From NCBI GenBank assembly GCA_964481385.1, contig CAYZTN010000002.1, positions 1-46,582 of the forward strand: a stretch of DNA of 46,582 nucleotides. The letters are read 5' to 3'. The DNA comes from an uncultured Clostridium sp. GTDB taxonomy: Bacteria; Bacillota; Clostridia; TANB77; CAG-465. Positions 4,548 to 33,633 of this stretch are shown here, in pieces (position 1 is the first letter of the stretch; each line of letters starts with the position of its first letter). A program made the position numbers and the translations under genes. The notes beneath the pieces were generated by a model. That model had not been told where the DNA came from, ran no database searches, and saw only the letters and a list, made by a program, of their open reading frames with translations.

Positions 4548-5486
4548 TTGTGTTTCGTGAAATTTAGTATAATAATACCTGTATACAATACAGAAAAGTA
4601 TTTGAATAAATGTATAGATAGCGTGCTTAATCAGTCATATAGCGATTTCGAAATGATTATAGTAAATGATGGTTCTAAAGATAATTCTCAAAGCATAATA
4701 GACGAATATTTAAAAAATAACGCTAGAATAAAATCATATATAAAAGAAAATGGAGGACTAAGTGACGCTAGAAATTTTGGAGTAACAAAAGCCAATGGCG
4801 AATATCTTTTGTTTTTAGATTCGGACGATTATATTGGTGAAGACTTATTACTTAATTTAAATGATATAATAACAGACGAAGATATTGTAAGATATAATAT
4901 TAGATTAGTAGACGAAAATTATAACGAAATACGCAGAGGTAAAGAGTATGAAACAAAGAAGTATGTTGGTTTTAAAGACCTCTTTAATATTGAATATTTT
5001 CAACCAGTATGTTGTTCGGCATATAGGACTAAGTTTTGGAAAGAACATAATTTTGAGTTTGCTGAAGGACGAATACATGAAGATTTTGGTATGACACCAT
5101 ATGTAGTGTTAGTTGCTTCAAAAAGAACGTTATTAAACTATTATGGATACAATTACTTTCAACGTCCTGGAAGTATAATGAATGGTGGCCAGAATGCTAC
5201 AAAAAGAGCAAATGATATGTTATATCACTTTGATACATTAACAGCTAATATAACTAAACTAAAAGGTATAGATAAGTCAGATAAAGCCTTAGTATTAAGC
5301 TATATTACAAACAATGTAATAAGCATGGTAACTTTTTTGAATGGCAAAGATAAAGCACAATTTATATCTGAATTAGAGAAAAGAAAAGTTGCGAAATATA
5401 TGTTATCAGACACTTTTAATAGGAAGATAAAAAAGATAGTTGCTACTATTTCACTCAAAGCATATATAAAAATTAGATTTAGATAA
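4548..5486 (+). CDS. family 2 glycosyltransferase
   Basis: FSIIIPVYNTEKYL...SVLNQSY.DFEMIIVNDGSKD...LDSDD is the classic GT2 N-terminal signature. The real start may be GTG 4557, 9 nt after AAGGAG. Confidence 0.8.
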   Translation: MCFVKFSIIIPVYNTEKYLNKCIDSVLNQSYSDFEMIIVNDGSKDNSQSIIDEYLKNNARIKSYIKENGGLSDARNFGVTKANGEYLLFLDSDDYIGEDLLLNLNDIITDEDIVRYNIRLVDENYNEIRRGKEYETKKYVGFKDLFNIEYFQPVCCSAYRTKFWKEHNFEFAEGRIHEDFGMTPYVVLVASKRTLLNYYGYNYFQRPGSIMNGGQNATKRANDMLYHFDTLTANITKLKGIDKSDKALVLSYITNNVISMVTFLNGKDKAQFISELEKRKVAKYMLSDTFNRKIKKIVATISLKAYIKIRFR

Positions 5487-5498
5487 TTGGGGGAAAAC

Positions 5499-6494
5499 AT
5501 GCCTAAGGTAAGTATAATTGTTCCTGTGTATAACACAGAAAAATATTTAAAGAAATGCTTAGATAGCTTGCTTAATCAAACACTGGAAGATATAGAAATA
5601 ATAATTGTAAACGATGGCTCAACAGATAATTCACAGGAAGTAATTGACGAGTATACAAAAAAAGATACTAGAGTAAAATCATATGTTAAACAAAATGGCG
5701 GTCAAGGCTCTGCTAGAAATTTAGGACTTGAAAAAGCTACTGGAGAATATATTGGTTACATAGACAGTGACGACTTTATAGATATTCATATGTACGAAGA
5801 TATGTATAACAAGGCTGTCACAGACAATAGTGATATTGTAAATGTTGGCTATTATATTTATTCAGAAACAGGAAATGTAACAAAAGAACAGGTGTTTAAG
5901 AGAGGTGTAACAACAAATATTAGCAATACACCAGAAGTTTTATTCGATAACACTGCAGTTACAAATAAACTATTTAAGGCAAGTCTATTAAAAAACAACG
6001 ATATACAATTTAGAGTTAAAAAATGGTATGAAGATTTTGACTTTGTTATAAAAACAATATGTTTTGCCTCAAATATTTCTGTTATAGAAAAACCGTATTA
6101 TTATTATTTACAACGTACTGGTTCTACTATGAACAATTCAAATATATCTAGAAACCTTGAAATACTAGAAGCAATGGACGAGATAATAGTCTTTTGTAAG
6201 GAACAAGGTATATATGATAAGTTTGCAGAACAGTTAGAGTTTTTGGCAGTACAACATATATACTTACCTACAAATGTACGTATAATACGAGCAAATGTTA
6301 GCTGGGCAGAAAAGATAAAAGTAATAGACAAAATAAACAAATATATGGACGAACATTTCAAGAACTATAAAAACAACAAGTATAACAACGTAATACTTAC
6401 CAAAAAGAAACAAACTATATTAAAAATGATTAAACTTAAAGCATATTGGATAGTATGGTTATGTTTTAAAGTTCGAGATGTTTTTAGAAGATGA
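5499..6494 (+). CDS. family 2 glycosyltransferase
   Basis: VSIIVPVYNTEKYLKKCLDSLLNQTLEDIEIIIVNDGSTDNS...IDSDD. ATG 5499 is preceded by GGGGGAA, and the track start at 5487 is a TTG inside that SD. Confidence 0.8.
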   Translation: MPKVSIIVPVYNTEKYLKKCLDSLLNQTLEDIEIIIVNDGSTDNSQEVIDEYTKKDTRVKSYVKQNGGQGSARNLGLEKATGEYIGYIDSDDFIDIHMYEDMYNKAVTDNSDIVNVGYYIYSETGNVTKEQVFKRGVTTNISNTPEVLFDNTAVTNKLFKASLLKNNDIQFRVKKWYEDFDFVIKTICFASNISVIEKPYYYYLQRTGSTMNNSNISRNLEILEAMDEIIVFCKEQGIYDKFAEQLEFLAVQHIYLPTNVRIIRANVSWAEKIKVIDKINKYMDEHFKNYKNNKYNNVILTKKKQTILKMIKLKAYWIVWLCFKVRDVFRR

Positions 6495-6512
6495 AAATTA
6501 AAGGAGAAGTCA

Positions 6513-8228
6513 ATGAGAAAAATTTTGAATAAACTATATAGCGAGAATGCCTTAAGACTATTACTTATATTATTTCCTTTTGTTGAGTTAGCAAGTATCA
6601 GTATAATAAAATTCAATTTTAGCATAACACCAGTTAAAATATACAAATTGTTTTTACTATTTTACACTGTATTTTATATGATATTTATAGATAAAAAGTC
6701 TAGAAAGCTTTCTTATCCGCTTATAGGTACTCTTGGAATTTATGCTATTTGCAATATTGTTTTTACAGTAGAAAGCGTCAGTATTGCTGATATATATATT
6801 AAAGCTACGGAACTTTGTGGATTTGTAGCTTTTCCAATATATACATTGTTTTTTATAACTTATGTTAAAAATGGAAATAAAATATCTGTTAAAACACTCA
6901 TAACAGTTGCTGCTATATATAGCTTAGTTATATTTATAGCAGATATTACAGGAACAGCTTTTGCAAGCAGATATAATTCAAACTATGGAAAAAAAGGTTG
7001 GTTTTATTCTGTTAATGAAATAGGCGAGTTACTTACTATATTATACCCTATTGTTGTATACAGCCTTATAACAACACCTTCAATAAGCAGAGGCGTAAGT
7101 GTATTTCTTTCTACATATGCTTTGCTTAATATTGGCACAAAAGCGTCACTTTTTGGAGTTGTTGGTACAGTTATATTCTTTGTTATATTTGCCATGTATT
7201 CTAAATTTGTTAGAAAAGTTAATGTGAAGAATATATTGTCAGTGTGTCTAATATTACTTGTAACAATTATACCGTTATTACCGCTTACTCCTACATATAA
7301 GTATATGAAAGCGAGTTACTCTACTTCGGATGAAGACGGACAATTACTATTTTCAGGTAGACAACATAAATTAGAAAGACAGTGGGATAACTACAATAAT
7401 TCCTCTTTAATAAACAAGCTATTTGGAATTAAAGAAAGCTTAAAAGAAGTAGGTGAAGGCGAAAAGTATTTTATAGTAGAACGTGATTTCCACGATACGC
7501 TATTTAATTATGGTATTGTAGGACTTGCAATATATATTGCCGTATTACTTATAGTATTAGTACCTTTTGGTATATACATATTAAAGGATATAAAGAAAAA
7601 CTGCAGTATACATAACTATACATTGATTTTGAGTGCTGGCTTAGTTTTAGTGGCTGCATATATATCTGGTCATACGTTATCCTCTTTAGCCGTATCGCTA
7701 TTTGTTGGTGTAATATTATCTAAAGTATATGCTGCAAATCACAAAATACAGGAAGGTAACTCAAAACAAACTGTTATGTTTATATGTAGCGTAGGTGGAC
7801 ATTTAACTCAAATGTTACAGATTAAAAAGATATTTAATAACTACGATTATGTGTTAATAACCGAAAAAACAGACGTTACTAAGAATATGAAAGAAAAATA
7901 CAACATGAAGTATTTGGTACATGGAACAAGAAAATACATGTTTAAATATCTGTTTATTGAGCTATACAACGTGTTAAAATCTATTGTATACTTCTTTTAC
8001 TATTCACCAGAAGTAATTGTAACTACTGGAACACATACCGCTGTACCAATGTGCTTTATAGCAAAAATCTTTGGTAGAAAAGTTGTGTTTATAGAAAGCT
8101 TTGCAAAACGCACTACTCCAACTAAGTCAGGTAAGTTGGTATATAAAATAGCAGATACATTTGTTGTACAATGGGATAGCTTAAAAGAAGTTTATCCAAA
8201 AGCAGAGGTTTGGGGGTGGATATATTGA
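6513..8228 (+). CDS. fusion protein: Wzy/O-antigen-ligase-like membrane domain plus C-terminal Alg14-like (PssD/Cps14F-type) domain
   Basis: The N-terminal ~410 aa are paralogous to 882-2186 (KKGWFYSVNEIGE, LNIGTKASL, SGRQHKL). The C-terminal ~150 aa read VMFICSVGGHLTQM...VTTGTHTAVPMCFIAKIFGRKVVFIESFAKRTTPTKSGKL...VVQW, which is the Alg14-like signature. Confidence 0.65.
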   Translation: MRKILNKLYSENALRLLLILFPFVELASISIIKFNFSITPVKIYKLFLLFYTVFYMIFIDKKSRKLSYPLIGTLGIYAICNIVFTVESVSIADIYIKATELCGFVAFPIYTLFFITYVKNGNKISVKTLITVAAIYSLVIFIADITGTAFASRYNSNYGKKGWFYSVNEIGELLTILYPIVVYSLITTPSISRGVSVFLSTYALLNIGTKASLFGVVGTVIFFVIFAMYSKFVRKVNVKNILSVCLILLVTIIPLLPLTPTYKYMKASYSTSDEDGQLLFSGRQHKLERQWDNYNNSSLINKLFGIKESLKEVGEGEKYFIVERDFHDTLFNYGIVGLAIYIAVLLIVLVPFGIYILKDIKKNCSIHNYTLILSAGLVLVAAYISGHTLSSLAVSLFVGVILSKVYAANHKIQEGNSKQTVMFICSVGGHLTQMLQIKKIFNNYDYVLITEKTDVTKNMKEKYNMKYLVHGTRKYMFKYLFIELYNVLKSIVYFFYYSPEVIVTTGTHTAVPMCFIAKIFGRKVVFIESFAKRTTPTKSGKLVYKIADTFVVQWDSLKEVYPKAEVWGWIY

Positions 8229-8707
8229 TACTAGTCACACTTGGAACACAGTTTGAGCCTTTTGAGAGATTATTAAAAGAAATAGAAAAATTGGATTTAT
8301 CTGAAGAAGTTATAGTGCAAGCAGGTCATACTAAGTTTGAAAGTAGTAAAATGAAAATATTAGACTTTATACCGTATGAAGAAATGAATGAGCTAGTAGA
8401 CAAAGCACGCATAATTATCACACACGGTGGAACTGGCTCAATAGTAGAGCCACTAAAAAAAGGTAAAGTTATAATAGGATGTGCAAGACTTGAGAAGTAT
8501 GGTGAGCATGTAGATGACCACCAAACAGAGCTTGTATCAATATTTTCTGAGCAAGGATATATATTAGAATTAAAAGATGGAGAGAACTTAAACGAAGTAC
8601 TTAAAAAAGCTGAAAAGTTTGTACCTAAAAAGTATGAAAGTAATACAGATAACTTTATTAAAATGCTACAAACCAGAATTGATGAATATTTGATTAAAGA
8701 GGAGTAA
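8210..8707 (+). CDS. Alg13-like / PssE / Cps14G-type glycosyltransferase catalytic subunit (GT28 C-terminal domain)
   Basis: ILVTLGTQFEPFERLL...ITHGGTGSIVEPLKKGK...GEHVDDHQTEL. The start is uncertain: alternative starts at 8210/8216/8225 overlap the end of the upstream gene. Confidence 0.7.
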   Translation: MGVDILILVTLGTQFEPFERLLKEIEKLDLSEEVIVQAGHTKFESSKMKILDFIPYEEMNELVDKARIIITHGGTGSIVEPLKKGKVIIGCARLEKYGEHVDDHQTELVSIFSEQGYILELKDGENLNEVLKKAEKFVPKKYESNTDNFIKMLQTRIDEYLIKEE

Positions 8708-8713
8708 ATACAA

Positions 8714-9838
8714 ATGAAGTTTAAAGACAAAGTATTAAAAGGAAGTACTACCACTCTTCCTAAGCTATTTATATGTACTCCTAGAATATCTGTAGGTGGA
8801 ATGGAAAGAGCATATATAAATATGCTTAATATGAGTAATATTACAAAAAACTATGAAGTATGGGCATATGTGGGATATGTAAAAGATAAAGAATACTTAA
8901 AGGATATTCCAGAGAATGTTCATTTGCATGTTGTATGCAAGAATAAGTGGGTTACAAAAAACAAAATTAAAGCGGTATTTAGTATGTTAAAAGATAGTTT
9001 AACTATGCCGAAATTTAGTAAAGCAATTTGTTTTGGACATAACAATATGTTTTTATCTTTACTTACAAGACGTGCAAGTAGTGATAATGTCATATTTGTA
9101 CATGCAGATTTAGATAGCAGAACTACTAAAGAATTAAGACAGATGAAACGCACTATTAAGTTTGAAAGCTTTAAGAAGGTAGTTTGTGTATCCAATAAAG
9201 TGGCAGACAGCTTCAAAAAGCATTTTTCAAATAAAGACGTTTCGGTTATAAATAACTATATAGACGGAGAGAAAATACTTGCTGAGGCAAATGTACAATT
9301 TGAAGACGCAAACGATATGTCTAGCACACTTTCTTTTGTAAATATATGTAGACAAGAAGAAAAAAGCAAAAAGCTTACTCGTGTAATATATGCTGTACAA
9401 AGGTTAAAAGAAGAAGATTTTAATTTTAAACTATATCTAATAGGCGACGGACCAGATACTGCTATGTATAAGGCCTTGGTGGACAAACTAAATCTAAATG
9501 ACTATATTGTATTTCTTGGACAAAAAACTAATCCTTATCCATATATTAAAAACTCTTCTGCTTTAGTATTTTGCTCAATATATGAAGGATATGGTATTGT
9601 ATTAGACGAAGCAAGAGTGCTAAATACTCCGTTTATATCTACTGATGTAGCTGACGCCTCCCTTATTGCTTCTAAGGGATACGGTATTGTTTGTGCTAAT
9701 TCAGAAGAAGGAATATATAACGGTATGAAGCAGTTTATTAAAGAGGGATACGAAATTAAAGTTCCTTTTGATTACACAAAGTTTAATGATAAAATAACAG
9801 ATGGAATAGATAAATTATTGGAGGATAACAATGCATGA
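8714..9838 (+). CDS. family 4 (GT-B) glycosyltransferase
   Basis: The C-terminal pattern YEGYGIVLDEARVLNTPFISTDV (EX7E-like) and the N-terminal GGMERAYIN are typical of GT4 enzymes. SD GAGGAG lies upstream. Confidence 0.7.
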   Translation: MKFKDKVLKGSTTTLPKLFICTPRISVGGMERAYINMLNMSNITKNYEVWAYVGYVKDKEYLKDIPENVHLHVVCKNKWVTKNKIKAVFSMLKDSLTMPKFSKAICFGHNNMFLSLLTRRASSDNVIFVHADLDSRTTKELRQMKRTIKFESFKKVVCVSNKVADSFKKHFSNKDVSVINNYIDGEKILAEANVQFEDANDMSSTLSFVNICRQEEKSKKLTRVIYAVQRLKEEDFNFKLYLIGDGPDTAMYKALVDKLNLNDYIVFLGQKTNPYPYIKNSSALVFCSIYEGYGIVLDEARVLNTPFISTDVADASLIASKGYGIVCANSEEGIYNGMKQFIKEGYEIKVPFDYTKFNDKITDGIDKLLEDNNA

Positions 9839-11570: not shown

Positions 11571-11622
11571 ATGGCTCACTTTCTAAAAGTGTCTTAAAAT
11601 CGATTCTAGAGCGTCGTTTTTT
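11571..11622 (+). repeat. left copy of a 52-bp imperfect direct repeat bracketing the recombinase gene
   Basis: ATGGCTCACTTTCTAAAAGTGTCTTAAAATCGATTCTAGAGCGTCGTTTTTT. It matches 12607-12658 at 43/52 positions (hand alignment, no gaps) and shares an identical 18-nt core CTTAAAATCGATTCTAGA. Confidence 0.8.
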
Positions 11623-11633
11623 TGGAGGTTTTT

Positions 11634-12584
11634 ATGAAAAAGACGGATTTTGAAGATGTTCCTGTTATTATGCAAGATTTCTTGAAAAATTACTTAACTG
11701 TGGCTAAAGGTCGTTCTGCATTAACTGTTAGTGAATATTATTATGACTTAAGAGACATTTTTAAGTTTATAAAACGAGATAAATTTAATATTAAAATTGA
11801 TGATTACAAAGAATTAAATATTTCAGATTTAGATTTAGATTTTTTTAAATCTGTAACTACTGACGAACTTTACGAATATTTGTTTGCACATTCAAATAAA
11901 TCAGTTTCTAGAGCTAGAAAAATTTCTTCAATGAAAACTTTTTTTAATTATTTATGTAATATTAAAAAAGTAATAGATAAAAATCCTTGTGTTGGTTTGG
12001 AAGGGCCAAAATTAGAAAGTAGATTACCAAAATATTTACAGCTAGACGAAGCCCTCTCTCTCCTACACTCAGTTTCTGGAGAATTTCAAGAGCGTGACAC
12101 TGCTATCCTTACTATATTCTTAAACTGCGGCTTACGTTTATCTGAGCTTGTAAATATTAACCTATGTGATATTAAAGGAGATACCCTCACTATTATAGGT
12201 AAAGGAAATAAAGAACGTAGTATTTACTTAAATGACGCTTGTAAAAAAGCTATAAAAGAGTATTTAGTTGTTAGACCAGTAGATAAAGTAAAAGATAAAA
12301 ATGCACTGTTTTTAAGCAAGCAAAACAAAAGAATTAGTCCTAGAATGGTAGAGCTTATGGTTAAAAAGTATATTCAGCTTGCAGGACTAGACACTAGAAA
12401 ATATACTCCACATAAACTAAGACACACTGCAGCAACTCTTATGCACAAATATGGCAATGTTGATGTTTTAACGCTTCAGCAAATATTAGGACATGAAAGT
12501 ATAGCTACTACTCAGATTTATACTCACATAGATCGTGAAGATGTAAAACAAGCTCTAGAAAGCAATCCATTAAACAAAATTTAG
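11634..12584 (+). CDS. tyrosine site-specific recombinase, XerC/XerD family
   Basis: An N-terminal SAM-like domain is followed by a catalytic domain with GLRLSEL (Arg I), HKLRHTAAT (H-x-x-R) and LGHESIATTQIYTH (His/Tyr). ATG 11634 lies 5 nt after GGAGG. Confidence 0.85.
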   Translation: MKKTDFEDVPVIMQDFLKNYLTVAKGRSALTVSEYYYDLRDIFKFIKRDKFNIKIDDYKELNISDLDLDFFKSVTTDELYEYLFAHSNKSVSRARKISSMKTFFNYLCNIKKVIDKNPCVGLEGPKLESRLPKYLQLDEALSLLHSVSGEFQERDTAILTIFLNCGLRLSELVNINLCDIKGDTLTIIGKGNKERSIYLNDACKKAIKEYLVVRPVDKVKDKNALFLSKQNKRISPRMVELMVKKYIQLAGLDTRKYTPHKLRHTAATLMHKYGNVDVLTLQQILGHESIATTQIYTHIDREDVKQALESNPLNKI

Positions 12585-12606
12585 CAAATTTCAGCCATAT
12601 ATTTAC

Positions 12607-12658
12607 ATGGCGTTTTTTCGAAAACTGCCTTAAAATCGATTCTAGAACGTCATTTTTT
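12607..12658 (+). repeat. right copy of the 52-bp imperfect direct repeat
   Basis: ATGGCGTTTTTTCGAAAACTGCCTTAAAATCGATTCTAGAACGTCATTTTTT, starting 22 bp after the recombinase stop. Confidence 0.8.
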
Positions 12659-12668
12659 GTGAAAAATA

Positions 12669-12706
12669 AGATAGGTTATGCAAAAATGGCCTATCTTTAG
12701 TTTTTT
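12669..12706. terminator. bidirectional terminator between the convergent recombinase and LysM genes
   Basis: An 8-bp stem AAGATAGG / CCTATCTT is flanked by A-rich sequence on the left and a T-run (TAGTTTTTTG) on the right. Confidence 0.55.
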
Positions 12707-12713
12707 GTTATTC

Positions 12714-12995
12714 TTAGTATATTGGAACGAAAATTATATCTCCAACATATATAATTGAGTCTGTCATATTGTTTATCTCTTTTATATCATACATTATACG
12801 GTATACATCTGTATTATCTTCATCTACCATTTCATTTGCAATAGACCATAAAGTATCACCTGGCATTACAACAAGCTCTTTTGTTACAAATTCTTTCTTA
12901 GCCAATAGACTATTGAATATAAAATGTAATACCATAATAAATAGGAATAGTATAACTACATTTCTTAATAATAATTTTAAACTACGTTTTTTCAT
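12714..12995 (-). CDS. small membrane-anchored LysM protein, YneA-like architecture
   Basis: N-terminal TM helix (LLRNVVILFLFIMVLHFIF) plus one LysM repeat (VVMPGDTLWSIANEM...IYVGDIIFVP). ATG 12995 follows a GGTGA SD; the track start at 13007 is the GTG inside that SD. Confidence 0.7.
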   Translation of the reverse strand: MKKRSLKLLLRNVVILFLFIMVLHFIFNSLLAKKEFVTKELVVMPGDTLWSIANEMVDEDNTDVYRIMYDIKEINNMTDSIIYVGDIIFVPIY

Positions 12996-13024
12996 ATATA
13001 TCACCAAACCCTTGTTCTGGATAT

Positions 13025-13053
13025 ATTATACAGCAAGTACATTTGTTTGTCAA
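13025..13053 (-). promoter_or_regulatory. consensus sigma-A promoter TTGACA-17 bp-TATAAT for the LysM gene
   Basis: On the minus strand, TTGACA lies at 13053-13048 and TATAAT at 13030-13025. Confidence 0.65.
13036..13049. promoter_or_regulatory. LexA-box-like site 2 (AGTAC-ATTT-GTTTG) overlapping the -35/spacer of the LysM promoter
   Basis: It matches the Firmicute SOS box CGAAC-N4-GTTCG at 7/10 defined positions and shares the GTTTG half with site 1. Confidence 0.3.
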
Positions 13054-13071
13054 CAATTTTATCTAAAAAAT

Positions 13072-13085
13072 CGAATGTTCGTTTG
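13072..13085. promoter_or_regulatory. LexA-box-like site 1 (CGAAT-GTTC-GTTTG)
   Basis: It matches CGAAC-N4-GTTCG at 8/10 defined positions and lies ~20 bp upstream of the -35. Confidence 0.4.
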
Positions 13086-13102
13086 TTTGTTTTATATGAA
13101 AG

Positions 13103-13125
13103 GACTACGGAATTGCTCCGTAGTC
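13103..13125 (-). terminator. terminator hairpin of cassette C (GACTACGGA-N5-TCCGTAGTC)
   Basis: A 9-bp stem starts 5 nt after the stop of 13131-13682. It is related in sequence to the hairpins at 13927-13954 and 14604-14636. Confidence 0.5.
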
Positions 13126-13130
13126 AATTT

Positions 13131-13682
13131 TTATTTAGAACTATATGCTTTGATAATAGCTTTTATTTCCAAGTAGTTTTTCCATCCAGTACCAGAAATC
13201 TTTTTCAATTTTTTATCAGAAATGCCGAATAACTTATCTATGGAATTAATATGTGCACTTTTAAGCGCATTATATGTGCTAACAGAAATAACAATGTTAT
13301 CCATAAACAGGCGTACGTTTTCGGCTTGCCGTTTCGACATAAAGATTTCCATACCGGAAGAGGTACGCATATTTTTAATTGCTTTCAAGTACATTTTGCA
13401 TAATTTATCACGCTCGTAATTTAGTTCTCTTGCAATAGCGCCATATGACTTTGGAGTATTTCCATCAAGGCCATATTTTAATATCAAAATTTTTCTTTCT
13501 AAAGGTTGCAAAGTATTTAGACCTCTCTTCATTGTCGCTATTTTTATTTTTTGACTTTTAGGAGAGCTGAAAAAAGAGTCTCCAACTAGCCGGCGTAAAA
13601 GATTTTCATATCCTATTCTTACTTCTGGAAGATAAGAAAGAGCATCTTCAAAACAACAATCATTCAAAAGCTTCGTTTTCAT
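13131..13682 (-). CDS. divergent sigma-70 region-4 HTH protein with degenerate alpha-CTD-like C-terminus (cassette C)
   Basis: LQPLERKILILKYGLDGNTPKSYGAIARELNYERDKLCKMYLKAIKNMR fits region 4. ISVSTYNALKSAHINSIDKLFGISDKKLKKISGTGWKN fits the alpha-CTD helix-hairpin-helix pattern, but the conserved Arg and NLGKK residues are replaced. Confidence 0.6.
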   Translation of the reverse strand: MKTKLLNDCCFEDALSYLPEVRIGYENLLRRLVGDSFFSSPKSQKIKIATMKRGLNTLQPLERKILILKYGLDGNTPKSYGAIARELNYERDKLCKMYLKAIKNMRTSSGMEIFMSKRQAENVRLFMDNIVISVSTYNALKSAHINSIDKLFGISDKKLKKISGTGWKNYLEIKAIIKAYSSK

Positions 13683-13749
13683 TTTTTCTCCTTTTTGAGT
13701 TTTTCACTCCCATAATTATTTGGTAACGCTAAGTTTAACTTACTTGTAT

Positions 13750-13778
13750 ATTATAACACATTTATGTAAACTATTCAA
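13750..13778 (-). promoter_or_regulatory. promoter of cassette C: TTGAAT-AGTTTACATAAATGTGT-TATAAT
   Basis: Minus-strand reading, 17-bp spacer, TG extended -10. Confidence 0.6.
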
Positions 13779-13926
13779 GCAGTATACGAAATGTTTATAA
13801 CTTAAAATTATTTCCTTAACCGGTGTTCCTTCACTGCTGAAAGCTTTATACTTCCTGACTATCTGAATGCTTGTGTCATTTGGGACGCTTTCAAATGACA
13901 CTGTTTTGCAATATAATAAGCTGCGG

Positions 13927-13954
13927 AAATTACTCCACAGCTTATTCATTTACT
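13927..13954 (-). terminator. terminator hairpin of cassette B
   Basis: TAAGCTGCGGA-AATTAC-TCCACAGCTTA with one mismatch, directly after the stop of 13962-14411. Confidence 0.5.
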
Positions 13955-13961
13955 TGGACCT

Positions 13962-14411
13962 CTATGAATCTGGCTTTACCAATACACTATTAGCATTTTG
14001 TTTTTGCTCATTTTCTAGGTACAAATTTCTTTTGCTAACACTAAATGTAGTAATTTTTGAAGAATGCCGCATCTTTCTTAATGCTTTTACTTCAATTTGA
14101 CGTATACGTCCATGCGTATAACCTAATTTTTGACCAATTGTAGCATATGTCTTTGTAATGCCATCATCAAGACCATATCTCAAAGCAATAACATTTGTCT
14201 CTAACTGAGTCAAAGTTTGTATGCTTTTGGATAATTCGGAAATGATTATCTCATTATCTTTTATTGTTTCAAACGAAGTAACTCCCAATATGGAGCGAAT
14301 AAGAAGAGCATAGCTCTTTAATTCGCGCTCACCATATCCTTCTGTATCAACAAAGATACGCTTCGCGTCTTTGATTACATTTGTCATTCCAAATTCGTTT
14401 TGTGTGTACAT
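13962..14411 (-). CDS. stand-alone sigma-A region-4 protein, no alpha-CTD (cassette B)
   Basis: [53 protein letters not shown] closely resembles primary-sigma region 4.1/4.2. The ORF stops after the linker. SD GAGAGG. Confidence 0.65.
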   Translation of the reverse strand: MYTQNEFGMTNVIKDAKRIFVDTEGYGERELKSYALLIRSILGVTSFETIKDNEIIISELSKSIQTLTQLETNVIALRYGLDDGITKTYATIGQKLGYTHGRIRQIEVKALRKMRHSSKITTFSVSKRNLYLENEQKQNANSVLVKPDS

Positions 14412-14485
14412 ACTAATCCTCTCTTTTTTGGGAGTTTTCCACTCCCGTAATTATTTGGGAATGCAAAAATTTCATTCACATTTAT

Positions 14486-14514
14486 ATTGTATCATATTTA
14501 TGTAAACTCGTCAA
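14486..14514 (-). promoter_or_regulatory. promoter of cassette B: TTGACG-AGTTTACATAAATATGA-TACAAT
   Basis: Minus-strand reading, 17-bp spacer. Confidence 0.6.
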
Positions 14515-14603
14515 GACGTAAATTGTAAAAATACGGTTTCTTTTCTAAACCCTCTTTAGTAATTAGAAATAATATAACTGCTATTGTTTGTTTGCGCGTT
14601 TTG

Positions 14604-14636
14604 CAAAGAAAAGCTACGGAAATTACTCCGTAGCTT
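14604..14636 (-). terminator. terminator of cassette A (AGCTACGGA-N7-TCCGTAGCT followed by a U-run on the minus strand)
   Basis: A perfect 9-bp stem. The minus-strand RNA continues UUUUCUUUGC. Confidence 0.65.
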
Positions 14637-14648
14637 TTTGTTACTTGG

Positions 14649-15272
14649 TTACTTGATAGCAAATTCTCTTTTGCAAGCAATCAATTCTTCGTAACCTTTT
14701 TTACCAAGGTTGCGAACTGTAAACAATTCTTCATCAGAAGTGTTGAGTAATTGTTCTACAGTTGTAATACCTGCACGCATTAAGCAATTGTAGCTCCTTA
14801 CGGAAAGATTAAGTTCTTTCACATTTGCCTCTTGACTTAGTAACGCTCTGGTTTCATTTCGCTTTTGCTCAGCTTCAAGCTGCGAGTTCCTTTTACTTAT
14901 ACAATAAGTAGTAACTCTTGACGGATGACGCATTTTTCTTAAAGCTTTCGCTTCAAGTTGATGTATACGCTCACGTGTGTAGTCAAGCAATTTGCTAATT
15001 GCATCACGAGATTTATACATGCCATCGTCAAGACCGTATCTTAATACAAGAGTAGAAGCCTCTAATGGCGTCAACGTGTAATCGATGGTATCTCTCAATC
15101 TTGAAATAACTATATCGTTATCGTTTATCTTATCAAAAGTATCGATACCGAAAATAGCTTTAGCAAGATTTGCATATGCAAAAACTTCAGCTTCACTATA
15201 GTTTTTTGCATCTGCGAAGATACGAGTAGCCTCTGCAAGCGATTTTGCTCTTTCAAGTTTTTTGGTGTTCAT
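14649..15272 (-). CDS. fusion of sigma-A region 4 with an RNA polymerase alpha-subunit C-terminal domain (cassette A)
   Basis: [53 protein letters not shown] is primary-sigma region 4. [44 protein letters not shown] is the RpoA CTD signature. ATG 15272 follows GAGAGG; the longer track ORF reads through the leader and promoter. Confidence 0.75.
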
Positions 15273-15342
15273 AATTAACCTCTCTTTTTTTGTTAGTTTC
15301 CACTTCCATAATATTGGAAATGCAAAATTTTTGCTTATATTC

Positions 15343-15371
15343 ATTATATCACATTTATGTAAACTTTGCAA
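15343..15371 (-). promoter_or_regulatory. promoter of cassette A: TTGCAA-AGTTTACATAAATGTGA-TATAAT
   Basis: Minus-strand reading, 17-bp spacer, TG extended -10. Confidence 0.6.
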
Positions 15372-15426
15372 ACTTGCAAAAAGACAGTTCAAAGAAAAAA
15401 CAAGTCTTTAAACTGTCTAAAATCAT

Positions 15427-16695
15427 TTACATATATTCGTAAATAGGGCCAATTTCTTTCGAAACAACCTCTTTAGTAATAATACATTTCTTAATATTCT
15501 TATTTGATGGTATTGTATACATAGCATCTAACATTGTATCTTCCATGATAGAACGTAAGCCTCTTGCTCCAGTTTTTCTTTCTATTGCAAGGTCTACAAT
15601 TGCTTCTATTGCATCTTTTCTAAAGTCTATCTCACAATTATCCATTTTAAGTAGCTTTTTATATTGCTTAATTATTGCGTTCTTTGGTTTAGTTAATATA
15701 TCCATTAAAGCCTCTTTATCTAGCTGTCCTAGAGAAGTGATAATAGGTAACCTACCAATTAACTCAGGTATTAAACCAAATCTTATAAGGTCATTTGGTA
15801 GTACATGAGAAAATATAGTAGCATAGTCTATATCTTTTTTATCTTCAATCTTAGCACCAAATCCCATAGACTTTTCGCCAATTCTAGCTTCAATTATCTT
15901 ATCTAAGCCCTCAAATGCACCGCCACATATAAACAAGATATTAGATGTATCTATCTTGATAAACTCTTGTTGAGGATGCTTTCTGCCGCCTTGAGGAGGC
16001 ACGTTTGCTACAGTTCCTTCAATTATCTTAAGAAGTGCTTGTTGAACGCCTTCGCCACTTACATCACGAGTGATAGATGGGTTTTCAGACTTTCTTGTAA
16101 TCTTATCTAACTCGTCAATGTATATGATACCTCTTTCTGCTTTAGATACATCATAATCGGCTGCTTGTATAAGCCTTAGTAATATGTTTTCAACATCTTC
16201 ACCAACATATCCTGCTTCTGTAAGAGTTGTAGCGTCTGCAATGGCAAAAGGAACTCTGAGTATCTTTGCTAATGTTTGAGCAAGCAATGTTTTACCACAA
16301 CCAGTTGGACCTAAAAGTAAAATGTTGCTCTTGTTAATTTCAACGCCATCTATTTTATCTAAGTTTCTTATTCTTTTATAATGGTTATATACTGCAACGG
16401 ATAATACTTTTTTGGCATCGTCTTGACCAATTACATATTCGTCTAAAATCTTTTTGATTTGCTCTGGAGTAGGTAGTTCTGTGTTTTCTATAAGCTCTTT
16501 GTTATTTGCTACTGCACTTTCTTCATCTTCAGTTTCCATTATATCTTCTAATATAATTCTATTACACAAATCTATACAATCGTCACATATGTATATGCCG
16601 TTTGGTCCTGCTATTATTTTGCCAACTTCGTCTTTGTATCTACCACAAAACGAACAAAATATATCTGTGCTTTTACCACTTGTCTTTCTTGGCAT
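15427..16695 (-). CDS. clpX: ATP-dependent Clp protease ATP-binding subunit ClpX
   Basis: N-terminal zinc finger CSFCGR...CDDC, Walker A GPTGCGKT, Walker [10 protein letters not shown], and an IGF-type loop region. Confidence 0.97.
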
Positions 16696-16729: not shown

Positions 16730-17326
16730 CTACAGTTCATTTATGCTATTCATTACTTCATCAATTAAACCATATTCTTTTGCTTCTTCAGCAGATAAGA
16801 AGTTATCTCTATCTGTATCTTTTTCAACTTGCTCTAATGGTTTTCCTGTATTTTCACTAAGTATTCTATTTAATTTTTCTTTTATTTTTAATAAATATTC
16901 TGTATGTATTTTAATGTCACTAGCTTGACCTTGTACGCCACCTAAAGGTTGGTGTATCATTATTGTACTATTAGGTAAAGCATATCTTTTACCTTTTTTA
17001 CCTGCAGCAAGCAAAAATGCTCCCATGCTAGCTGCCATACCGATACATATTGTACATACATCTGATTTGATGTATTTCATTGTATCATATATTGCCATTC
17101 CTGCAGTTACACTTCCTCCAGGACTATTAATGTATAAATGGATATCCTTACCTGGATCCTCTGCGTCTAAGAATAATAACTGTGCTACTACTAAAGAGGC
17201 ACTAACGTCATTTACTTCTTCAGATAAAAATATAATTCTTTCTTTTAATAATCTTGAATATATATCGTAAGATCTTTCCCCTTTACTTGTTTGTTCTACA
17301 ACTACTGGTACTAAACTATTGTTCAT
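16730..17326 (-). CDS. clpP: ATP-dependent Clp protease proteolytic subunit ClpP
   Basis: [22 protein letters not shown] (Ser), MIHQP (His), DTDRDNF (Asp). It lies 34 bp upstream of clpX. Confidence 0.97.
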
Positions 17327-17472: not shown

Positions 17473-17934
17473 TTAGTTAAAATATCTATTTAAAACCATG
17501 TAAGCATAGTCTATTAATGCACTCCAATAAGTAGAAGTTCTTGTTAACTCTTTTTCTATTTCGTCAGTTAACTTTTTACATTCTTCTTTATTTATTAAGT
17601 TTGTTGCCTCTACTTTTTTTAAGAAGCTTATAAATTGTTCGAAGCTCACTGCAATTGTTTCTATTGCTGCCCAATTATCGTTAAACATACAATATATTGG
17701 TATTTCTTCTTCGTCTATTTTCGCTATTATAGGTAAGTCGCCACACGAAACATATCCTATAACAACAAATTCATCGCCAAACCATTCGTATATTGGTTCT
17801 CCTGTTTTCTCGTCATACCTATATCCTGCTTGTGCTTTCTCTATTTCCTCTTTATTATAGATATGAATTGTACCTAGACCTATCCTTACGTCATTTATAC
17901 CACTATTAAATATTTTCTCGGGTATTTTTAACAT
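17473..17934 (-). CDS. hypothetical protein, SMI1/KNR4 (SUKH)-like
   Basis: About 150 aa with the pattern FVVIGYVSCGDLPIIAKIDEEEIPIYCMF...IAVSFEQFISFLKKV, reminiscent of SUKH immunity-type domains. This rests on motif-level recognition only. Confidence 0.4.
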   Translation of the reverse strand: MLKIPEKIFNSGINDVRIGLGTIHIYNKEEIEKAQAGYRYDEKTGEPIYEWFGDEFVVIGYVSCGDLPIIAKIDEEEIPIYCMFNDNWAAIETIAVSFEQFISFLKKVEATNLINKEECKKLTDEIEKELTRTSTYWSALIDYAYMVLNRYFN

Positions 17935-25882: not shown

Positions 25883-28051
25883 CTAAGCCTCCTCATTTTC
25901 ATTATCAACACTTTCTTTCTTCTTTCTTGTCACTTTTCTTTTAACAGGTGTGTCCTCAGTCAATGTTTCTTCTTTTTTCTTTCTTGGTTTTCTTACGCTC
26001 TCTTTCTTTTCTTTAACTACTTGTTCGAAGTTATCTTCAATAACTTTGTATAGCCAAGCTGCAGAGCCTGTATACCAAGTCCAACCACCACGTCCAATAT
26101 GTTCTGGGTTAGCGTAAACATCTGCTGCTACAACATATGGCTCTACCATATATATTTCTGCTTTTTCTTTGCTGTCTGAATGGTTTATAGGGTTTATAAT
26201 ATTTAGGATATCCATTGCTTTTTTAGGTTCACCTATTTCAAAATATGCTTTTGCAAGCCAAATTGCAGCGTGTGTATATTGTCCGCCATTTTCTCTTACG
26301 CCAGGAACATAAGACTTAATATATCCTGGGTTACGTTTTGGCTTATCAAATGGTGGATAAAGTAGTTTCACTATATTATGTTCTCTATCTACCAAATATT
26401 TTTCTGCATTTTCTAATGCTGACGCAATTTCGCATTTACAGTCTGGATAAGACTTTAAAGCAATAGCTGCCCAAGTTTGAGATATAAGGTCGATTTTACA
26501 TTCTTCACAGTCCATATCTCCCAAAGCTGTTCCATCTGCGTAATATGCACGAATAAAATACTCATCGTTATATCCGCTTTCAAATATAGCTTGTTTTAAT
26601 ATGTGACGCTCGCTTAAGAAGTGAAGTTTACCAACGTCATCTCCTCTGTACTCAGCAAGCCTTGAAAATCTGTCCAAAATATCCATCATAAATAGCGTAA
26701 GCCATACAGATTCACCACGTATATTGCTATATCCGTCACACCAGTCTCCATCTCCAATATCTAGCAAACCGTGTCTGCCTTTTCTAGACAAACCATAGTT
26801 TATTGCTCTAACTGCATGTTCATAAATTGTAGCTTCAACTTCTATCTCATTAAACACATCATATATTTCGCGTTTTGTATCTAACGGTTTATCTTCTAAA
26901 AACTTAGTTTTTTCGTCTAATATAGCTGTATCACCAGTTTTTTCTACATATTCACTTAAAGTATATGGTAACCACAAATAATCGTCACTAAATAGCGTCC
27001 TAATTCCAGCACCATTATGTTCATGCCACCAATGAAGCACATCACCTTGCTCAAATTGTTTCTTGCTATGCTTTATAATCTGAGCTTTTGTAAACTCTGG
27101 CCACGTCTTAATTAGTGCTAGTGAATCTTGTAACTGGTCACGAAAACCATATGCTCCACCTGCTTGGTATAGAGCAGTTCTAGCATAAAGCCTACATGCA
27201 ATACATTGGTAAAGTAGCCAACCATTAGCCATTATATCTAACTTGCCATTTCCAGTTTTAAAATTTTTAACAACTAAATTTCTCCAATATTTTTTAGTGT
27301 TATCATATTCAGAAGTAATTGAATTTTCATCTGCATACTTTTGTACGATTTCTTGTACTTTGGCTTCTCCCTCGTCAGTTGCACCAAAAATTATTGCAGC
27401 ATGCCTTGTTGTATTAGATTTCACTATAACTCTAAGTTTTACCACGTTTTGTTCTAAATCATACTCTACTGTTGACTTATCTTGTTCACCGTAAACATAT
27501 CCTTTTACATATGATACAACGTTATTAAAATACTCGCTATATGGGTTCTTGAAAAGAAGTGCACCATCATCTTCTTTAGATATTATATATCTCGCCGACA
27601 TTTCTTTAGCGTTTCCAAGTACCATGTCTAGTTTGTATTCAATTACTACTTCCTTATCTAAAGTTCTGTTATTTGTAAGGGAAATATATTGCACTTTAAG
27701 ATCGTCGTTTACCGGGATAAATATATCCATGTTTCTTTCTATATTGTTATTTTCACCCATAACTCTAACATAACCAAAACCATAGGTAAGATTATACCCT
27801 GTATCAAAAACGCCTCTGAATTCCTCTCCTGGCGAAAACGCGGCCCAATCATTACACCAAGAAGTTAATTTAAACTCACTAGCATTTTTGTAAAAGGAAT
27901 ATACAGTTCCATATGAGGAAATTACTGTACCAAACCTTGAATTGCTAAGTACATTGCACCAAGGCACAGGAGTATGAGTATTTAAAATCTCATACTCATC
28001 TCCTGACTCATTAAAACAACCATAATTATTAAATGCTCTTGTATTTTCCAT
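25883..28051 (-). CDS. GH94 glycoside phosphorylase-like protein, equivalent to the C-terminal domain of cyclic beta-1,2-glucan synthases
   Basis: The N-terminal FNESGDEYEILNTHTPVPWCNVLSN is the GH94 N-domain opening. FRDQLQDS, FSDDYLWLPY and GGWTWYTGSAAW are catalytic-barrel motifs. The protein ends in a Lys-rich tail. Confidence 0.8.
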   Translation of the reverse strand: MENTRAFNNYGCFNESGDEYEILNTHTPVPWCNVLSNSRFGTVISSYGTVYSFYKNASEFKLTSWCNDWAAFSPGEEFRGVFDTGYNLTYGFGYVRVMGENNNIERNMDIFIPVNDDLKVQYISLTNNRTLDKEVVIEYKLDMVLGNAKEMSARYIISKEDDGALLFKNPYSEYFNNVVSYVKGYVYGEQDKSTVEYDLEQNVVKLRVIVKSNTTRHAAIIFGATDEGEAKVQEIVQKYADENSITSEYDNTKKYWRNLVVKNFKTGNGKLDIMANGWLLYQCIACRLYARTALYQAGGAYGFRDQLQDSLALIKTWPEFTKAQIIKHSKKQFEQGDVLHWWHEHNGAGIRTLFSDDYLWLPYTLSEYVEKTGDTAILDEKTKFLEDKPLDTKREIYDVFNEIEVEATIYEHAVRAINYGLSRKGRHGLLDIGDGDWCDGYSNIRGESVWLTLFMMDILDRFSRLAEYRGDDVGKLHFLSERHILKQAIFESGYNDEYFIRAYYADGTALGDMDCEECKIDLISQTWAAIALKSYPDCKCEIASALENAEKYLVDREHNIVKLLYPPFDKPKRNPGYIKSYVPGVRENGGQYTHAAIWLAKAYFEIGEPKKAMDILNIINPINHSDSKEKAEIYMVEPYVVAADVYANPEHIGRGGWTWYTGSAAWLYKVIEDNFEQVVKEKKESVRKPRKKKEETLTEDTPVKRKVTRKKKESVDNENEEA

Positions 28052-33598: not shown

Positions 33599-33633
33599 AA
33601 AATTTTCTCCTAAATTCAATATAATTTACCCAC

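Follow-up and report, generated by a model that had tools for sequence, protein, structure and literature searches.

Phages are known to control host transcription with proteins that attach to RNA polymerase (RNAP) or modify it; T4 Alt/ModA, for example, ADP-ribosylate R265 of the alpha subunit. In Bacillus subtilis, SigO-RsoA is a two-subunit sigma factor in which the polypeptide bearing sigma region 4 (sigma-4) lacks region 2, a region-2 partner is encoded next to it, and SigO carries no C-terminal domain of the alpha subunit (alpha-CTD). Here, we analyzed a 46,582-nt stretch of contig CAYZTN010000002.1 (GCA_964481385.1) from an uncultured Clostridium sp., hereafter the window, in which three consecutive genes (A, B, and C) encode sigma-4 proteins that have no other part of a sigma factor and are fused, in A and C, to an alpha-CTD. 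These domains are known; their architecture, together with an N-terminal motif, defines an unnamed, uncharacterised, and abundant family that is mainly phage-borne. A, B, and C are best explained as chromosomal, lineage-specific paralogues of this family, whose other members are mainly encoded by temperate phages.

Other phage proteins with a comparable site of action include Staphylococcus aureus phage G1 gp67, which binds SigA region 4 (PDB 4g6d), and T4 AsiA/MotA (PMC6755090), which are early or middle proteins acting on initiation that depends on the −35 and UP elements. They and Alt/ModA bind or modify host modules and are unrelated in sequence to the family, whereas the family copies the modules themselves; for all of them, the expected outcome would be that −35/UP-dependent host transcription is selectively lost. 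Phages also encode stand-alone alpha-CTD and Sigma70_r4 proteins (BFVD A0A6J5MNY7 and A0A6J5S254; Mycobacterium phage Mithril A0A5Q2WLP1), which are uncharacterised and have a single domain. Gene B resembles the Sigma70_r4-only type. A Foldseek search with the model of A found no chain in PDB or BFVD that holds both domains or matches the full two-domain model.

The three genes lie on the minus strand directly after clpX (15427–16695, minus strand), where the earlier note on this DNA, made from the letters alone, had placed them. Coordinates are positions within the window, and residues are numbered as in sigma70 for sigma-4 and as in E. coli alpha for the alpha-CTD. In the product of gene A (14649–15272, minus strand; 207 aa from ATG), the N-terminal motif is followed by sigma-4 of the sigma-A type, a helical linker, and an alpha-CTD. 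Gene B (13962–14411, minus strand; 149 aa) encodes the motif, sigma-4 with R584H/E585G, and the linker, with the alpha-CTD deleted, and gene C (13131–13682, minus strand; 183 aa) has the architecture of A and is strongly diverged (30% identity to A). In A, regions 4.1 and 4.2 cover residues 56–120 (14913–15107, minus strand), with His at the R588 position of the recognition helix, and the alpha-CTD covers residues 146–198 (14679–14837, minus strand), with R265, N268, C269, N294, G296, and K298 kept and S299 replaced by Gly. Both domains of A scored above the Pfam cut-offs (Sigma70_r4, 32.7 bits, cut-off 24.1, residues 66–116; RNA_pol_A_CTD, 67.9 bits, cut-off 23.8, residues 146–198). Sigma70_r4 was the sole domain found in B (49 bits), and C was matched by RNA_pol_A_CTD (34.9 bits), with Sigma70_r4 below the threshold (12.7 bits). 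The sigma-4 module of C was nevertheless matched by NCBIfam TIGR02997 (4e-8, residues 44–106) and aligned by the hidden Markov model (HMM) of the family (residues 19–119).

Compared to region 4 of primary (group 1) sigma-70 factors (PF04545; B. subtilis/S. aureus SigA, 4g6d, 7ckq), the family has the same fold and a near-identical recognition helix, and the GLDDG insertion of group 1 factors is also present in the chromosomal clade that includes the window genes. The sigma-4 half of the AF2 model of A (pLDDT 94.4, pTM 0.73) superposed on SigA region 4 (7kug, 8d5v, 4g6d) at 0.8–1.8 Å with 43–52% identity (Foldseek). In contrast to primary sigma-70, the family lacks regions 1.1–3.2, and thus region-2 core binding, −10 recognition, and DNA melting, and adds the N-terminal motif and the alpha-CTD. 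The alpha-CTD half of A has the helix-hairpin-helix fold of the RpoA C-terminal domain (PF03118; 1z3e, 3gfk) and superposed on B. subtilis alpha-CTD 1z3e_B at 0.9 Å with 52% identity, and both A and the wider family retain an intact 265 determinant. Unlike RpoA, the family has no alpha N-terminal domain (NTD; PF01000/PF01193) and cannot dimerise into core, and its alpha-CTD is tethered to sigma-4. With respect to sigma-70, the window proteins lack region 2 and have the region 4 helix-turn-helix (HTH), altered by R588H in A and by R584H/E585G in B and degenerate in C; with respect to RpoA, they lack the NTD, and the C-terminal helix-hairpin-helix is present in A, without R265, C269, N294, and S299 in C, and missing from B. 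Pfam models for Sigma70_r2/r3 and the alpha NTD gave zero matches in A, B, and C, NCBIfam RpoD models were covered over just their last 60–70 residues (64–65 bits, cut-offs 500–572), and rpoA equivalog models reached 61–64 bits (cut-offs 228–406). The AF2 model of C (pLDDT 86.3), built from an input alignment dominated by canonical members, retained both folds, with the sigma contacts replaced by E585D, R588C, and Q589K and the alpha contacts by R265S, C269A, N294G, and S299N.

The earlier note had assigned both domains, recognised that B ends after the linker and that C is much more diverged and has lost its contact residues, and pointed out that sigma regions 1–3 and the alpha NTD are missing from all three proteins. 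Pfam, NCBIfam, the family HMM, and AF2/Foldseek bear out each of these statements, including the residues quoted for A and C, and the conclusion that the proteins lack the parts needed for normal assembly into core RNAP (region 2/3 and the alpha NTD) holds as well. Its view that they consist of just two modules is right about the sigma-4/alpha-CTD fusion and overlooked the third, N-terminal motif, which A and B share and which has diverged in C. The sequence 3' of the B stop codon (CCAAGTAA..., then the terminator) matches that 3' of the A stop; because this sequence and the terminator are common to both genes, B is an alpha-CTD deletion derivative that arose by a clean loss of this domain.

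A homology search with A returned dozens of unnamed proteins of 200–320 aa with the same two Pfam domains, and 1,775 proteins were found at E ≤ 1e-30 in a profile search of 1.84 billion representatives. Among the best 150 of these 1,775, the basic architecture is seen in 84, of which 16 carry an additional domain at the N-terminus, and about 60 consist of one or more sigma-4 with two to six alpha-CTDs or of alpha-CTDs alone. The size of the family is roughly a thousand 50%-identity clusters. Against the family profile, A aligned over positions 4–200 in a single stretch (E = 1.5e-61), C in two pieces (5–98 and 134–200), and B over 5–108 only, its alpha-CTD being deleted. At least 22 full-length members are located on IMG/VR viral contigs of 4–100 kb. 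In loci L001, L002, and L180, the family gene lies between replication/ThyX genes and terminase-portal-capsid genes, in L180 about 5 kb and more than eight genes upstream of the terminase. In L181, it is part of an early operon, beside an integrase and about 2 kb beyond a CI/Cro-like switch. Methylases, ThyX, and integrases were the only recurrent neighbours in the 22 phage loci. The family resembles SigO-RsoA in lacking region 2 but differs from it in that no adjacent sigma-2-like partner gene was found in these 22 neighbourhoods or in the window. A tblastn search of the INPHARED cultured phages with P0031 yielded no full-length members, only host sigA/rpoA fragments, besides partial matches in faecal contigs labelled 'Bacteriophage sp.'.

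The family is large and unnamed and occurs mainly in the early/middle regions of temperate phages. The search across genomes and gene neighbourhoods that the earlier note had proposed thus places this architecture mainly in phages and the window copies on a chromosome, and the suspicion that it belongs to no characterised family was justified: no source names it ('hypothetical protein' is used wherever a name is given), and no publication on it was found; the survey of the bacterial transcription apparatus by Iyer & Aravind (2012) might mention it. As the family is abundant and lacks any annotation, many gut phage genomes would be better annotated once it had a name.

The sigma-4/alpha-CTD module is also found in larger proteins. 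In many members, including P0268, it follows XRE HTH domains, and there are fusion arrays with up to five alpha-CTDs. P0131 (1003 aa) has three Spo0A_C domains and several alpha-CTDs, together with a single sigma region 4 that carries the N-terminal motif; it thus contains in effect all promoter-proximal DNA readers of a Spo0A-activated promoter. P0136, P0165, and P0175 (1034–1257 aa) join an SF2/SNF2-type helicase (ResIII + Helicase_C + HA domain) to sigma-4 and alpha-CTD; these helicase fusions may be promoter-targeted translocases. No close relatives of P0165 and P0131 were found in IMG/VR. Judged by their domains, all partners to which the module is fused are DNA-binding or DNA-translocating, which, together with the residue conservation described below, favours a DNA-binding over a sigma-like role. 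Besides these fusions, P0132, P0228, P0146, P0134, and P0161 (570–2200 aa) contain 5–12 tandem alpha-CTD-like domains, some ending in sigma-4; such large arrays of the alpha-CTD fold seem undescribed.

We counted the contact residues in 144 distinct members outside the chromosomal clade. In sigma-4, R584 is present in 105 of these members, E585 in 134, R586 in 141, R588 in 140, Q589 in 137, and R596 in 140. In the alpha-CTD, R265 is found in all 144, N268 in 132, C269 in 123, N294 in 139, G296 in 143, and S299 in 130, and K298 is present in 107, with Arg in a further 27. The positions expected to contact the −35 and UP elements are nearly invariant across the family, and members are therefore predicted to bind TTGACA plus an A-tract. 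According to PMC2613000, R584 and E585 make contact with the base pairs at −31 and −33, and specificity is relaxed at −33 by R588H and E585Q and at −31 by R584C. It is these positions (584, 585, and 588) that are hypervariable in the chromosomal clade, whereas 586, 589, and 593–601 are constant and the alpha-CTD contacts are kept in A-type genes. Position 584 is Arg in A, C, and P0002, His in B, and Tyr in P0003 and P0004; position 585 is Glu in A and P0002, Gly in B, Asp in C, and His in P0003 and P0004; and position 588 is His in A and P0002, Arg in B, Cys in C, and Gln in P0003 and P0004. Conservation across the family reaches at least 90% in 26 columns, and only six of these, including E585, R588, and S299, are replaced in at least two of five orthologues. 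Hypervariability at 584/585/588 with 586/589/593–601 kept is the pattern expected if DNA specificity evolves; the chromosomal copies have changed exactly the −35 specificity residues, and with its substitutions at 584, 585, and 588 this clade offers a natural experiment in the encoding of −35 specificity.

The N-terminal motif of the family, [YFW]-P-x-N-L-[AILV]-x-x-[IV]-h-G (YPxNLAxxIFG), lies about 20 residues before region 4.1 and was found in 123 distinct members. In A, it spans codons 33–42 (15147–15176, minus strand; pLDDT 96–97 in the AF2 model), and B and C have the versions YALLIRSILG and YENLLRRLVG. Its helix columns, N-L-A-x-A-I-F-G-D-E, resemble the beta flap-tip helix, which in PDB sequences reads EEKLLRAIFGEKA in E. 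coli and EERLL(H/R)AIFGEKA in Firmicutes. In a post hoc test with a position-specific scoring matrix, flap tips scored within the best 0.045% when compared with random 27-mers drawn from real open reading frames (ORFs) on the helix columns (p ~4.5e-4), and p was 5.5e-3 with the YPxN columns included. Y-P-x-N, the most conserved motif residues, have no flap counterpart, and an HMM of the 22-residue motif retrieved no RpoB among PDB sequences at E ≤ 10. The flap-tip helix docks on sigma region 4 (PMC6755090), and crystallographic constructs fuse the flap tip to sigma-4 for stability (PDB 3t72, 6ido, 7kuf). The LL(R/H)AIFG added in such chimeras (also 8cwr) resembles the N-L-A-x-A-I-F-G of the family; however, the chimeras are laboratory constructs, the family helix precedes sigma-4, and the HMM search gives no support for flap-tip homology. 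The resemblance is suggestive only of an N-terminal helix that may already fill the sigma-4 groove; with the groove self-occupied in this way, flap binding would be unlikely.

Our preferred reading, which we put forward tentatively, is that the family members bind −35/UP-like DNA as free-standing proteins, in competition with holoenzyme. A member composed of the N-terminal helix motif, sigma-A-type region 4, helical linker, and alpha-CTD would bind DNA without RNAP. Its sigma-4 HTH would read a −35-like hexamer in the major groove, and the tethered alpha-CTD would read the adjacent A/T-rich minor groove, as holoenzyme does at a promoter with UP and −35 elements (cf. PDB 3n97, in which the same modules are bound to UP/−35 DNA as separate chains, whereas here they form one chain). 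Having neither sigma region 2 nor an alpha NTD, the protein cannot initiate transcription; by sitting on the upstream half of promoters that depend on −35 and UP elements, it would instead compete with holoenzyme. Phages would use it as a takeover factor or an early-to-late switch, and extended −10 promoters would be spared. Besides the near-invariant contact residues, the DNA-directed fusion partners, and the hypervariable positions 584, 585, and 588, this reading is supported by the missing sigma region 2/3 and alpha NTD, the close superposition of both folds, the early/middle position of the phage members, the purifying selection on A-type genes, and the TG-extended −10 of all three cassette promoters. 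The chromosomal clade has kept the alpha-CTD contacts and would have re-tuned the −35 specificity residues. Here, A would be a functional regulator with a relaxed or changed hexamer preference (R588H), whereas B is a derivative without the alpha-CTD and C one without the DNA contacts, and B and C may be neo-functional or decaying.

A more specific version of this competition reading, possible although doubtful in our view, is that the family represents a natural self-contained copy of the upstream-promoter-recognition unit, with a flap-tip-like helix locking sigma-4 in its holoenzyme conformation, sigma-4 itself, and the alpha-CTD. Temperate Firmicutes phages would use it to out-compete holoenzyme at UP/−35-dependent promoters, and one Clostridia lineage would have domesticated it while diversifying the −35 specificity residues. 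If competition for promoter DNA is indeed what the proteins do, they form a new class of host-takeover or transcription-switch factor that acts by module mimicry rather than by binding RNAP, and structural and synthetic biology would gain a soluble sigma-4/alpha-CTD unit of natural origin. The earlier note had already raised occupancy of UP/−35 DNA, and the near-invariant contacts in the 144 members and the DNA-binding fusion partners support this idea. The beta-flap, anti-sigma, or appropriator role that it had also proposed is somewhat disfavoured, because the N-terminal helix resembles the flap tip and no sigma-2-like partner is encoded nearby. Its observation was correct and its interpretation is partly supported; what it missed were the phage family, the cassettes, the variable locus, and the changed −35 residues.

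The surroundings of the window genes are ordinary chromosome (a polysaccharide-synthesis cluster, an XerC/D-type recombinase, a YneA-like LysM protein, clpX, clpP, tig, and Sua5), with no phage structural genes in the window. The closest named relatives of the trigger factor (tig) are labelled 'MAG: Clostridia bacterium' and share 60–76% identity. The conserved upstream flank of A, B, and C is clpX, with clpP (16730–17326, minus strand) beyond it. The conserved downstream flank, present in all relatives examined, encodes a YneA-like cell-division suppressor with a transmembrane segment and a LysM domain (12714–13007, minus strand), and the convergent gene of an XerC/XerD-type tyrosine recombinase (11622–12584, plus strand) is conserved with or without cassettes. 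While the window carries three cassettes between clpX and xerC, the corresponding interval in L096 (tig identity 76%) contains yneA and DUF2238 and no family gene. L094 (tig identity 77%) has one 216-aa family gene adjoining xerC, L178 and L179 (short contigs, with tig outside them) have one intact A-type gene between clpX and yneA, and L005–L008 (tig identity 93% for L005) have a family pseudogene. In the latter (9900–10440 in L005; also in L006–L008), an internal deletion removed the N-terminal motif, the frame is shifted, and two residues are deleted in the sigma-4.2 recognition helix, with promoter and leader still conserved. The locus is a variable chromosomal islet at which relatives carry zero copies, one copy, or a pseudogene.

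The A orthologues P0002 and P0004 share 75–77% identity with A and lie in the syntenic loci L178 and L179, and A is the orthologue of a single-copy gene in sister strains. A-type orthologues have a dN/dS of 0.18–0.21 (0.02–0.04 for clpX); within the gene, it is lowest in the alpha-CTD (0.10), higher in sigma-4 (0.22), and highest in the N-terminal region (about 0.5). Since, in addition, their dS is similar to that of neighbouring genes, A is considered to be vertically inherited, functional, and fast-evolving; it is under purifying selection, strongest on the alpha-CTD. B and C have no relatives beyond their own paralogues among 5.8 billion clusters and are lineage-specific derivatives. Among the GTDB representatives, no close relative of A was found, the sole match being an actinobacterial sigA. 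A search of metagenome contigs with the sigma-4.2 helix pattern kept 80 loci, almost all with sigma region 4 only and presumably genuine sigma-factor genes.

Each of the three genes has its own predicted promoter, leader of about 70 nt, ribosome-binding site (RBS), and hairpin terminator, so that A, B, and C form three apparently autonomous promoter-to-terminator cassettes. The promoters are of the sigma-A type, with a TG-extended −10 and the conserved spacer GTTTACATAAATRTG. That of cassette A (15343–15372, minus strand) consists of TTGCAA, 17 nt, and TG-extended TATAAT, with the conserved spacer GTTTACATAAATGTG; those of B (14486–14514, minus strand; TTGACG, 17 nt, TG-extended TACAAT) and C (13750–13778, minus strand; TTGAAT, 17 nt, TG-extended TATAAT) have the same spacer element. 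A, B, and C account for all three occurrences of the 18-nt promoter element in the window, where chance would give 0.12. In the 5' leader of A (15273–15342, minus strand), a conserved CCAA(A)TAATTATGG(G/A)AGTGGAAAC directly precedes the RBS, and the leaders of all three cassettes have the conserved element CCAAATAATTATGGGAGTG. The terminator hairpin of A (14611–14639, minus strand) reads AAGCTACGGAGTAATTTCCGTAGCTT and is followed by a T run; that of B (13918–13946, minus strand) is 86% identical to it, both belonging to repeat family D3, and that of C lies at 13103–13125 (minus strand). Although synonymous sites of the paralogues are saturated (pS 0.59–0.70), the regions upstream of A, B, and C are 61–76% identical, indicating that the regulatory region is constrained. 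The leaders gave folding z-scores of −0.8 to −2.6, and no Rfam model matched near its threshold (best preQ1-II, 26 vs. 47 bits). Promoters with a TG-extended −10 are the class least dependent on −35 recognition, and the cassette promoters would thus fit self-immunity of the genes.

Two other interpretations of the cassettes were rejected. The spacer GTTTACATAAATRTG, which contains a −35-like TTTACA, might be an autoregulatory operator; however, it is identical whatever the recognition residues, and this lack of co-variation leaves the idea unsupported. Integron cassettes do not fit either, since the recombinase is best matched by XerC/XerD (220/197 bits, compared to 69 bits against a cut-off of 265 for integron integrase), each cassette has its own promoter and terminator, and the recombinase is kept in the cassette-less L096.

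Several points weigh against competition for promoter DNA. Isolated sigma-4 and alpha-CTD bind DNA weakly, and the high affinity expected from tethering is assumed. While the architecture, the folds, the residue conservation, the phage and chromosomal contexts, and the selection pattern are shown by the data, we infer DNA binding, the target sites, and the competitive outcome, and the AF2 evidence covers the domain folds rather than the inter-domain geometry. Conservation of the contact residues could reflect recent capture from host genes, and the same surfaces could serve protein-protein uses. Moreover, the DNA contacts are lost in C and in the L005 copy, and the cassette spacer, showing no co-variation with the recognition residues, identifies no target site. 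A different, although unlikely, possibility is that the proteins are activators by mimicry, which would bind upstream via sigma-4, alpha-CTD, or the XRE HTH and recruit holoenzyme through the natural alpha-CTD/sigma-4 interface. Either their acidic 259/261 patch would touch R603 of the sigma-A in RNAP or their own R603 would touch the RNAP alpha-CTD, in a class I/II-like manner at phage middle/late genes. The interface residues are indeed frequent (acidic alpha 259 in 107, acidic alpha 261 in 113, and sigma R603 in 108 of the 144 members), but an intramolecular contact on DNA explains their conservation equally well. The L180 gene lies between the replication and packaging modules, a common site for late activators in Gram-positive phages, yet it is separated from terS by the distance given above, and the L181 gene is early, just past the lysogeny switch. 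B and C also have weak matches to PHROG regulators/activators (phrog_36, 6.7e-5, and phrog_248, 0.04, respectively), whereas canonical −35 specificity would direct an activator to ordinary host promoters and not to dedicated sites. The more specific proposal of a Gram-positive phage late activator of the RinA/ArpU/LtrC type was rejected on the same PHROG matches and gene positions.

Even less probable is a protein decoy or sponge, whose free sigma-4 and alpha-CTD surfaces would titrate RNAP-docking factors. The targets would be Spx, Spo0A, or class I/II activators in phages, and a gp67-/AsiA-like phage anti-sigma for the chromosomal copies, which would then be a host-side anti-phage decoy. This idea would account for a sigma 593–601 patch that the chromosomal clade retains despite its variable base contacts, for the three Spo0A_C domains of P0131, for the rapid copy-number turnover, and for the Tyr/Phe found in 134 of 144 members at the position of B. 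subtilis alpha Y263, an Spx contact. The alpha-CTD-Spx complex is represented by PDB 1z3e/3gfk. However, a sponge would not require invariant DNA contacts (alpha R265 in 144 of 144, G296, and N294; sigma E585 and R588), the clpX adjacency is not conserved (L094, L096), and the domain-level PADLOC/NCBIfam matches to MzaA and PglW, which could be taken to favour a decoy, score far under the curated cut-offs and reflect a shared domain only, with no defence genes flanking the locus. We consider it improbable that the proteins are RNAP-bound sigma-4 substitutes or parts of a split sigma (appropriators), docking on the beta flap or pairing with a sigma-2-like protein and re-targeting the holoenzyme. 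The sigma-A-like fold of region 4.1/4.2 (0.8–0.9 Å) and the known precedents of two-subunit sigma factors and sigma appropriation (PMC6755090 for the latter) speak for such a role, but neither a sigma-2-like nor any other conserved partner was found in the 22 phage neighbourhoods or the window, the N-terminal helix with its flap-tip hydrophobic pattern may occupy the groove, and canonical −35 specificity would give no re-targeting. It is equally improbable that the genes, mainly B and C, are decaying phage-derived remnants without present function. Decay would be in line with the zero copies of L096, with the damaged recognition helix of the L005–L008 pseudogene, and with the lost domain of B and lost contacts of C, neither of which has orthologues among the 5.8 billion clusters. 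On the other hand, all three ORFs are intact, each with a strong TG-extended promoter, an RBS, and a terminator, their upstream regions have stayed similar despite saturated synonymous sites, A-type genes have a dN/dS of about 0.2, and C is still modelled as a confident fold.

Two further ideas about the locus were not upheld. A link to Spx/ClpX, suggested by the adjacency to clpX, is contradicted by L094, in which the family gene lies beside xerC, and by L096, which has no such gene. A defence system was rejected as well, as the PADLOC/NCBIfam matches are domain-level only (MzaA, 45.7 vs. 800 bits; PglW, 24.1 vs. 990 bits) and no MZA or BREX partner genes or other defence genes flank the locus in the window. 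The neighbouring YneA-like protein (97 aa) matches the SOS cell-division suppressor model NF010723 with 54.7 bits (cut-off 60). Its gene has a perfect TTGACA-17-TATAAT promoter (13025–13053) with a LexA-box-like site, GAACAAGGGTTT (GAAC-N4-GTTY), right after the −10, and no lexA gene adjoins it.

Accessory genes are found elsewhere in this region, too. A 153-aa ORF between tig and clpP in the window (17473–17934, minus strand), which has no Pfam, NCBIfam, or PADLOC match, is also present in L005 and L006 and is absent from L091, L093, L094, and L096, where clpP directly follows tig; this operon region thus has another small islet that varies between relatives. In L094, a gene for a multi-pass membrane protein of 251 aa (12411–13166) separates clpX from the yneA-like gene, and two radical-SAM genes and a UvrD-type helicase gene are inserted upstream of tig (4587–8810), which shows that the whole tig-clpPX neighbourhood gathers accessory genes. 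Finally, a GH94 pair is encoded upstream of tig (25883–33619, minus strand), with a protein of 1855 aa (Glycoamylase + GH94) followed by one of 722 aa (GH94). This pair is present in all relatives examined, and its domain make-up, with Pfam domains assigned on the orthologues in L005, L091, and L096, resembles that of cyclic or linear beta-glucan phosphorylase/synthase systems.

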